Below, piece by piece: positions 59,782-60,798 of a stretch of DNA of 64,000 nucleotides. The stretch covers positions 546,795 to 610,794 of the forward strand of contig JAOSJK010000012.1 in the NCBI GenBank assembly GCA_027494135.1. Reading direction: 5' to 3'. Both the position numbers and the translations under genes were made by a program. The notes under the pieces were generated by a model. It did not search any database, was not told where the DNA came from, and worked only from the letters and a program-made list of their open reading frames with translations. Source of the DNA: Acidimicrobiia bacterium (GTDB taxonomy: Bacteria > Actinomycetota > Acidimicrobiia > IMCC26256 > PALSA-610). Positions within the stretch are counted from its first letter, which is position 1, and each line of letters starts with the position of its first letter.

Positions 59782-60798
59782 ATGCAGCACCGGCCGACAA
59801 CGATCCTCGATCGGCTCCGGGCTCTCCGTGGCCTGTTGAAGATCAGCGACGACGAGTTCAACTCCTTCATGGGCACCTACGCAGCGCTCTTCACCGACTC
59901 ACCGGAGAGCACCAGAGCCGACTACGACAACGGTCTGCCCGCACAGGGCTACAAGCAGGGCAGCAGCACGGAGCTCGAGCAGTACTACAAGATCATCCAT
60001 CTGCTCTGCACGCTCGGATCCGTAGAGAAGATGTACATGCCTCCGGTCATGGACGAGCGACAGTCCGTACTGAAGAACCAGATCCTGTTCGAGCGACTCG
60101 TGGCCACCGACCTCGATGCCGGCAAGGGCGACAAGGTCCTGGACCTCGGATGCGGATGTGGCGCGATCGCCGAGCACATCGCCGAGCTGACAGGTTCGAC
60201 CCTCTACGGCATCAACATCGACAAGTCGCAGATCGACAAGGCATGGGAGAACCCGAACCTCGTGAAGCCGAACTTCACCGTCGGCGACTTCAACGAACCG
60301 CTCGAGTTCGACGACGACACGTTCGACGCGGTCTACGCGATCCAACCGCTGACCTACGTGACCGACCTCGACTTCACATGTCGCGAGGTGTCTCGCGTCA
60401 TGAAGCCCGGCGGGAGGTTCGTCATCGACGACGTCGCCGCCCTCGACTGCTACGACCGCGAGAACGAACATCACCGAACGTTGATCCAGCACACCCGCGA
60501 GCTGACCGCGTTCGGAGGGTTCTGGCACTACAAGTACTGGGAGGACGCCATCACGAACGCAGGCTTCGAGATCCTCTCCTCCGAGGGGAGGAGCGCGGTC
60601 GCGATGATCAAGAAGGAGATCGCGCTGTACGACAAGTACGAGGCAGTGTTCTCCTTCCTCACGAGAGCCCGCGTGATGCCCAGGAAGATCAGCGCCATGA
60701 TCTCCCGCATGCACGACAACAGTCGCTCGTACATCCAGGCCGAGGAGGAGGAGCTCCTCACCCTCAACTGGAACTACGTGGCTCAGATGCCGGCCTGA
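59782..60798 (+). CDS. SAM-dependent methyltransferase resembling sterol 24-C-methyltransferases (ERG6/SMT family)
   Basis: ATG at 59782 with an AGGGGA RBS. SAM motif I is [49 protein letters not shown] and the C-terminal extension align in order with my recollection of ERG6. GC looks lower and the composition is Lys/Asn/Tyr-rich. Confidence 0.6.
   Translation: [338 protein letters not shown]

Follow-up and report, generated by a model that had tools for sequence, protein, structure and literature searches.

The 64,000-nucleotide stretch of contig JAOSJK010000012.1 of an Acidimicrobiia bacterium (assembly GCA_027494135.1, positions 546,795 to 610,794), hereafter called the window, contains at positions 59782..60798 of the plus strand a complete gene for a predicted class I S-adenosylmethionine (SAM)-dependent methyltransferase, which is related to the sterol C-24 methyltransferases (SMTs) such as ERG6 of Saccharomyces cerevisiae. 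The uninterrupted open reading frame (ORF) extended from 59725 to 60798 (plus strand), in which the ATG at 59782 gave a product of 338 amino acid residues plus a stop codon. This ATG was preferred over the GTG at 59725 and the TTG at 59836 because the homologs have 338 residues, residues 3–18 are conserved and an AGGGGA that resembles a Shine-Dalgarno sequence (59769..59774, plus strand; read from the sequence) lies 7 nt upstream of it. Nearly all homologs were exactly 338 residues long with an N-terminus of M-x-H-[KR]-P-T-T, and six positions within residues 3–18 were invariant in an alignment of 22 sequences. An NCBI copy from a contig of an Acidimicrobiia metagenome-assembled genome (MAG) was 100% identical (P0001), had 320 residues and started 18 codons later, at the TTG 59836; its annotation is probably too short. 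The gene was divergent from an RNase HII gene (58859–59581, minus strand) and convergent with a GYD-domain gene and rpiB; it is monocistronic. No riboswitch or other RNA family was found by an Rfam scan of positions 59400–61300 at E ≤ 1, and neither a promoter nor a terminator was found by a scan around the gene. PADLOC returned only an uninformative match of the core domain to mad2.

A protein database search identified 703 homologs, of which the best 120 were 67–100% identical to the window protein, nearly all 338 residues long and co-linear with it. The identities between the window protein and the members of this actinobacterial family ranged from 66 to 83%, the mean column identity of the 22-sequence alignment was 83% and the ratio of nonsynonymous to synonymous substitution rates (dN/dS) between family members was 0.16–0.28. 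Because of this ratio, the gene, which is real and intact, is also regarded as functional and strongly constrained. Consistent with the initial annotation of this DNA, which had described a 338-residue gene without a frame break, the ORF was intact and under purifying selection. When one genome per species was scanned, 135 carriers were identified, and their taxonomy was taken from the record titles of the best 80. Among these 80, most were Acidimicrobiia, including Acidimicrobiales, Microthrixaceae, Ilumatobacteraceae, Iamiaceae, MedAcidi-G1, IMCC26256 and IMCC26207, and the others included environmental mycobacteria (Mycobacterium and Mycolicibacterium). Cultured carriers include Mycolicibacterium xanthum Y57, IMCC26256 and IMCC26207. 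Some carrier names, such as Klebsiella pneumoniae, Bifidobacterium breve and 'delta proteobacterium', were implausible; the flanks of these gene copies had a GC content of 59–70%, the copies themselves were similar to those of Acidimicrobiia, and the records are probably mislabeled bins. In addition, four MAGs (L028/L062, L031/L038, L040/L058 and L043/L079) each contained two family copies on separate contigs, with 66–70% identity to the window protein, which points to either paralogy or mixed bins. No paper that links a sterol methyltransferase with Acidimicrobiia was found in the literature.

Pfam models of generic class I methyltransferases, Methyltransf_31, Methyltransf_11 and Methyltransf_25, matched residues ~103–266 of the window protein with E-values of 1e-17 to 1e-19, and these models as well as Methyltransf_23 and Methyltransf_12 all scored over their cut-offs. 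Sterol_MT_C (PF08498) did not match the window protein even at E ≤ 1, and no NCBIfam model scored above its curated cut-off. The score of CMAS (PF02353) was 30.1 bits against a cut-off of 27 bits, which came from the core (positions 50–212 of the 273 of the profile) and was far weaker than those of the generic methyltransferase domains. The NCBIfam models of cyclopropane fatty acid synthases scored far under their cut-offs. An AlphaFold2 (AF2) model built from the 22-sequence alignment had a predicted local distance difference test score (pLDDT) of 82.7 and a predicted template modeling score (pTM) of 0.83. Its core consisted of alternating strands and helices, with strands at residues 118–122, 140–145, 165–167, 181–186, 207–221, 263–269 and 326–335. 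Foldseek matched the model to many class I methyltransferases with a probability of 1.00. The closest folds in the PDB were those of AtmM, SpnF, MitM, RebM, TleD, sarcosine/dimethylglycine methyltransferase (SDMT), phosphoethanolamine methyltransferase (PMT) and the geranyl/farnesyl pyrophosphate (GPP/FPP) C-methyltransferases, with template modeling (TM) scores of 0.55–0.64 by query length, E-values of ~1e-15 to 1e-16 and identities of ~20%. Sequence matches in the PDB, found by hmmsearch with a profile of the wider clade described below, had E-values of 1e-30 to 1e-34. No SMT was found among the matches of either the sequence or the fold searches of the PDB; as of a 2025 preprint, no SMT structure had been reported (10.64898/2025.12.19.695621). 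A fold search of BFVD returned only generic methyltransferases of giant viruses. By its sequence and its model, the protein belongs to the class I (Rossmann-fold) SAM-dependent methyltransferases.

For comparison with SMTs, the reference was ERG6 of S. cerevisiae (P0285). BLASTP aligned residues 104–268 of the window protein with residues 108–275 of ERG6, with 34% identity over 169 amino acid residues (E = 3e-25). A profile of 12 fungal SMTs and two metagenomic proteins positive for Sterol_MT_C was compared with the family profile by hhalign, which gave a probability of 99.9% (E = 8e-33) over residues 102–338 of the family and 106–371 of ERG6, with the C-terminal domain included. When only the C-terminal 49 residues were compared, the probability was 81.5% (E = 1e-5) between the family and SMTs, 96.8% (E = 3e-10) between the wider clade and SMTs and 99.4% (E = 3.5e-21) between the family and the wider clade. 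The C-terminal helical domain (residues 290–338; 60649..60795, plus strand) is thereby indicated, by profile-profile comparison only, to be a divergent homolog of that of SMTs. The same type of comparison for the N-terminal ~100 residues, where SMTs carry Region I, detected no similarity to SMTs.

Twenty-five residues are conserved across all functional SMTs, of which W85, H90, F91, P133, E195, G333, P359 and W286 were kept by every SMT tested, and Region I is defined by the motif 84-GWGxxFHF-91 (10.64898/2025.12.19.695621). In a MAFFT L-INS-i alignment, 10 of the 25 were kept in the window protein (Y74, G84, D125, G127, G129, G147, Q154, D189, G217 and G268), and the other 15 were lost (T78, W85, G86, F89, H90, F91, G132, P133, E195, W286, G333, L341, G352, F357 and P359). 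The replacements were invariant in the family at 11 of the 15 lost positions and varied slightly at the other four. The Region I equivalent (residues 68–88, corresponding to ERG6 73–93; 59983..60045, plus strand; MAFFT L-INS-i) contained a different, family-invariant motif, G79-S-V-E-K-M-Y-M86, in which only G84 of the SMT motif was retained. The Rossmann-type core mapped by Pfam (residues 115–242; 60124..60507, plus strand) possessed D121, G123, G125, G143, Q150, D182 and G210, which matched SMT-conserved residues. Within it lay SAM motif I (residues 119–127; 60136–60162, plus strand). Of Region II of SMTs (125-DxGxGxxGP-133), D121, G123 and G125 were present and G132-P133 were replaced by A128-I129; the part that was kept is generic to class I methyltransferases. 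In the Region III equivalent (residues 183–194; 60328..60363, plus strand; aligned to ERG6), YAIQPLTY was found instead of YAIEATCH, so that E195 corresponded to Q188 and H199 to Y192, both of which were invariant in all 22 sequences of the family alignment.

The initial annotation had called the gene sterol-methyltransferase-like on the basis of a block-by-block likeness to ERG6 and of a C-terminal extension of the SMT type. Each of the blocks that it had named, including NEHHR/NPEHR, did align with ERG6 of S. cerevisiae, and the extension was homologous at the profile level. As an SMT, the protein did not hold up: Sterol_MT_C had no match, only 10 of the 25 residues were kept and Region I was replaced. 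Of the Pfam models to which that annotation had pointed, Methyltransf_11/25 matched and Sterol_MT_C was absent, the very outcome that it had named as speaking against its proposal. What stands of its family placement is that the protein falls among class I enzymes of the SMT superfamily, with SMTs as the closest named family; its placement as an SMT does not. The protein does not look like a degenerate SMT, as the lost signature residues were replaced by equally invariant ones; it is therefore taken as a putative member of a differently specialized lineage.

Among 1.84 billion representative proteins, an exhaustive search with a profile identified ~50 full-length relatives with 22–40% identity. 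Sterol_MT_C matched 10 of 53 distant relatives at E ≤ 0.01. When ten relatives were scanned singly, three reached the Pfam threshold, of which two were SMTs with the GWG motif (53–55 bits) and one was of the EKMY type (22.9 bits), and two more remained below it. The named members of this wider clade were from Chlamydiae including Rhabdochlamydiaceae, Verrucomicrobia, Legionella, Aspergillus section Flavi, Colletotrichum and Chromera velia, and a cluster look-up added a member from an archaeon MAG. Those of Aspergillus section Flavi were annotated as "putative S-adenosyl-methionine-sterol-C-methyltransferase" and others as 'class I SAM-dependent methyltransferase'. An EKMYxPP-like motif was found in all 119 wider-clade matches and GWGxxFHF in none of them, and the reverse was found among 120 relatives of ERG6. 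The Region I motif of the family was present in 119 of its 120 matches and absent from the 120 relatives of ERG6. Over these 359 proteins, GWGxxFHF and EKMYxPP were mutually exclusive. The window protein possessed the features that define the clade: the lid motif [ED]-K-M-Y-x-P-P, Y-x-[IV]-Q where SMTs have Y-A-I-E, and the C-terminal domain with L-x-T...K-P. Comparison of lid motifs also ruled out DsyG/DSYE of dimethylsulfoniopropionate (DMSP) synthesis (PMC11306096) as a candidate, the lid motif of which is different (YDxxxxxxFYxxVMGG...IHYG).

The phylogeny with SMTs that the initial annotation had recommended separated the two groups. In a neighbor-joining (NJ) tree, the actinobacterial family was monophyletic in 200 of 200 replicates, and SMTs of the GWG type were split from all other sequences in 200 of 200. 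The mycobacterial copies nested among those of Acidimicrobiia. The nearest relatives of the family were 35–40% identical to it and came from AT-rich marine contigs, one of which had a dynamin gene as a neighbor. In addition, a DNA pattern for EKMYIPP found in IMG/VR a full-length homolog with 31% identity on the giant-virus MAG GVMAG-S-3300009084-278 (7029–8015; GC content of 0.275). This homolog and those of two AT-rich marine contigs, L085 (6008–7057) and L084 (8001–8981), were all full-length and 31–36% identical. These results suggest that members of the clade have been exchanged among bacteria, eukaryotes and giant viruses. The sequence comparisons place the actinobacterial family inside this wider uncharacterized clade, which would be the sister group of SMTs.

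Among the ~45 ORFs of the window that were scanned with Pfam, no gene of sterol, hopanoid or isoprenoid synthesis was found, in agreement with the earlier remark that no sterol or hopanoid genes are nearby. The neighborhoods of 81 related loci were compared with the window by clustering all their ORFs by all-against-all BLAST. At none of the 81 loci did sterol genes adjoin the homolog, and no metabolic neighbor was conserved across them. A TetR-family gene was directly upstream in 12 of the 81 loci and a large LuxR-type regulator was nearby in ~6. No conserved context was found for the members from Chlamydiae, Rhabdochlamydiaceae, Legionella and Verrucomicrobia.

Other genes of the window included an imuA'-imuB-dnaE2 mutagenesis cassette on the minus strand (48590–52179, 53350–54798 and 55045–55755). 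The dnaE2-like gene was broken over at least four frames, with the PHP domain at 51217–52179, the N-terminal part of DNA_pol3_alpha at 50889–51596, the C-terminal part of alpha with the finger at 48590–50563 and HHH_6 with the OB domain at 48721–49776; either pseudogenization or indel errors of a long-read assembly may explain the breakage. The imuB ORF had no Pfam match, and its C-terminal third seemed out of frame. A gene for an AI-2E family transporter (57306–58833, plus strand) had a frameshift near 58030–58100, with profile positions 8–79 in one frame and 118–325 in another, and the HNH/DUF222-like ORFs at 56146–57227 occupied two overlapping frames; the adjacent methyltransferase gene was intact. 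The window also contained ORFs similar to the small and large subunits of NiFe-hydrogenase (30122–32323, plus strand) and a fusion ORF (39533–42241, plus strand), whose product of 903 residues combined GNAT with an ADP-forming acyl-CoA synthetase in the architecture of Pat-type protein acetyltransferases.

The methyltransferase gene had a GC content of 0.613. In the window, 32 gene-like ORFs averaged 0.705 ± 0.026, so that the gene lay 3.5 standard deviations (SD) lower, and the GC content of its flanks was 0.70–0.74. The deficit was confined to codon positions 1 and 2 (0.56 and 0.38). GC at third codon positions (GC3) was 0.87–0.89 in the gene and 0.865 ± 0.027 in the window, and an index similar to the codon adaptation index (CAI) was 0.705 against 0.694 ± 0.029 in window ORFs. 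Lys, Asn and Tyr accounted for 4.7, 3.8 and 4.7% of the residues, respectively, compared with 1.1, 1.4 and 1.7% in the neighbors, and Lys, Asn, Tyr, Ile and Phe were 2–4 times commoner than in 26 Pfam-supported window genes. All codons for these five amino acids (100%) were the GC-ending ones preferred by the host. The frequent AAG, AAC, TAC and ATC codons are thus host-preferred codons of unusually frequent amino acids and do not represent foreign codon usage. Moreover, the GC content of the gene was under that of its flanks in 73 of 75 related loci (mean difference of −0.051), and its GC3 tracked the GC content of the host from 0.42 to 0.73 (r = 0.90). The low GC content results from a strongly constrained amino acid composition, in which Lys, Asn, Tyr, Ile, Phe, Asp and Glu are unusually frequent, and not from recent transfer.

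This bears on the claim of the initial annotation that the gene is compositionally foreign. Its lower GC content and its many AAG, AAC, TAC and ATC codons were both borne out. Lys is not preferred over Arg, as the protein contains 16 Lys and 19 Arg, though its K/(K+R) ratio of 0.46 was well above the 0.10 of its neighbors. The foreign character itself was contradicted by GC3, the CAI-like index and codon choice, which equaled those of the neighbors, and by the recurrence of the GC dip at related loci. Recent acquisition from a lower-GC donor could draw on the size of the dip, on a chromosomal position that was not syntenic even with an 83%-identical relative and on the closest relatives beyond the family, whose contigs were AT-rich (GC contents of 0.27–0.35) and marine, eukaryote-like or giant-virus-like. 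Such an origin is nevertheless very improbable: the GC3 and codon data already refute recent transfer, the dip and the correlation of GC3 with the host extend over the related loci, and neither repeats nor tRNA or mobility genes were present at the borders of the gene. It is possible, as a claim distinct from that of recent transfer, that the gene entered Actinomycetota in the distant past and has since ameliorated fully.

Regarding function, many homologs are annotated in JGI/KO as 'sterol 24-C-methyltransferase' (K00559), bacterial SMTs exist (PMC10070321), and among named families SMTs ranked first in the profile comparison, with a homologous C-terminal domain. A genuine bacterial sterol C-24 methyltransferase is still very unlikely, given that Sterol_MT_C did not match, that the 15 lost residues include the eight kept by every tested SMT (10.64898/2025.12.19.695621), that the N-terminal profiles are dissimilar and that sterol genes were absent from the scanned ORFs of the window and from beside the 81 homologous loci. 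The genetic data that might apply to the clade are limited to Smt1 of Aspergillus fumigatus, a paralog similar to Erg6. Smt1 cannot replace Erg6, and neither deleting nor overexpressing it produces a phenotype related to ergosterol (PMC10441335), which would also speak against an SMT if Smt1 were a member of the EKMY clade. A small-molecule N-, O- or S-methyltransferase that acts on a polar metabolite, such as an osmolyte or a phospho-base, in the manner of PMT or SDMT, is less improbable and is considered a minor possibility. It would agree with the PDB sequence matches of the clade profile, in which a plant phosphoethanolamine N-methyltransferase ranked first (E = 8.5e-34), ahead of RebM, MitM and AtmM, and with SDMT and PMT among the fold matches. 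The invariant polar residues of the lid and the segment after the core (E82, K83, Q188, D217, Q236, H237, R239 and E240) and the abundance of the family in planktonic Acidimicrobiia point in the same direction. These sequence and fold matches, however, are mainly over the generic core, the positions of the PMT catalytic residues D128 and H132 are Q188 and Y192 here, the C-terminal domain is similar to that of SMTs and not to those of PMT or SDMT, and the S-methyltransferases DsyG/DSYE belong to another family. A methyltransferase that tailors a natural product as part of a gene cluster, similar to RebM, MitM or TleD, is the least probable of these functions: its nearest structures are indeed natural-product methyltransferases, but no biosynthetic genes flanked the gene in the window or at the 81 related loci, and 66–83% identity across bacterial classes and families is atypical of such enzymes.

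We consider it likely that the window protein is an active, native and stand-alone SAM-dependent methyltransferase of a conserved actinobacterial family within the sister clade of SMTs and that its acceptor is most likely not a sterol. SAM would be held by the canonical Rossmann core, with SAM motif I, G-I-N-x-D and KPGG. By homology to SMTs, the acceptor pocket would be formed by an N-terminal helical lid (residues ~60–105), the QHTRELTxFGGxW segment and a C-terminal helical hairpin. A sterol would probably not be the acceptor because the aromatic, carbocation-stabilizing Region I, E195, H199 and most C-terminal signature residues are replaced by an equally invariant set. At best guess, the acceptor may be an amphipathic lipid or another conserved cellular metabolite; the initial annotation had rightly left the substrate open. 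Several points weigh against this interpretation. Both the activity of the enzyme and its non-sterol substrate are what we infer, for the family and for the wider clade alike. No named family is closer to the protein than SMTs, and Sterol_MT_C matched 10 of the 53 distant clade members, so that the acceptor could conceivably be sterol-like or another triterpenoid. Finally, older horizontal spread within Actinomycetota is likely, since the position of the gene is not conserved and the mycobacterial copies lie among those of Acidimicrobiia.

A further and more tentative proposal, which we hold to be rather unlikely, is that the family and the clade together form a second branch of the SMT superfamily, distinct in function, that methylates a non-sterol lipid, at carbon or otherwise. 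Candidate acceptors would include isoprenoids, hopanoid-like triterpenoids, unsaturated acyl chains and sterol derivatives of host origin. If this were true, methylated lipids would have an unrecognized source in fungi, alveolates, giant viruses, amoeba-associated bacteria, environmental mycobacteria and the abundant environmental Acidimicrobiia, and the gene would have moved across domains and viruses.

Acidimicrobiia are major lineages of freshwater, marine, soil and wastewater habitats, with few cultured members. An orphan enzyme kept at ~70% identity across them is a reasonable target for the discovery of function. Hundreds of family and clade proteins carry the "sterol 24-C-methyltransferase" (K00559) label in metagenome annotations despite the lost SMT residues. 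If these mislabeled proteins were counted, the extent of sterol side-chain methylation in bacteria, which bears on the reading of sterane biomarkers, would be overestimated. This case also shows that a 10-point dip in GC content can arise from constrained amino acid composition alone.

Similar to ERG6 and other SMTs, the window protein combines a predicted N-terminal helical lid, a Rossmann core and a C-terminal helical domain, and it shares with them G-[IL]-N after strand 2, the Y-D-x-x-N-x-x-H-R segment and the C-terminal ending L-x-T...A-x-K-P. Different from SMTs, its W286 loop is shorter, its C-terminal domain departs from theirs at G333, G352, F357 and P359, and E195, H199 and G132-P133 are replaced by Q, Y and A-I, respectively. 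With the wider clade, the actinobacterial family shares full-length homology at 25–40% identity, the Region I motif, Q at the position of E195, the C-terminal domain and the occurrence as stand-alone genes. The mean column identity of the family is 83%, compared with 30% for the wider clade, and the family has invariant residues of its own, e.g., MYMPP and QHTRELT. RebM, AtmM, MitM, TleD and SpnF as well as PMT and SDMT are without the SMT-type C-terminal domain and are unlike the window protein in their lid motifs and catalytic residues.

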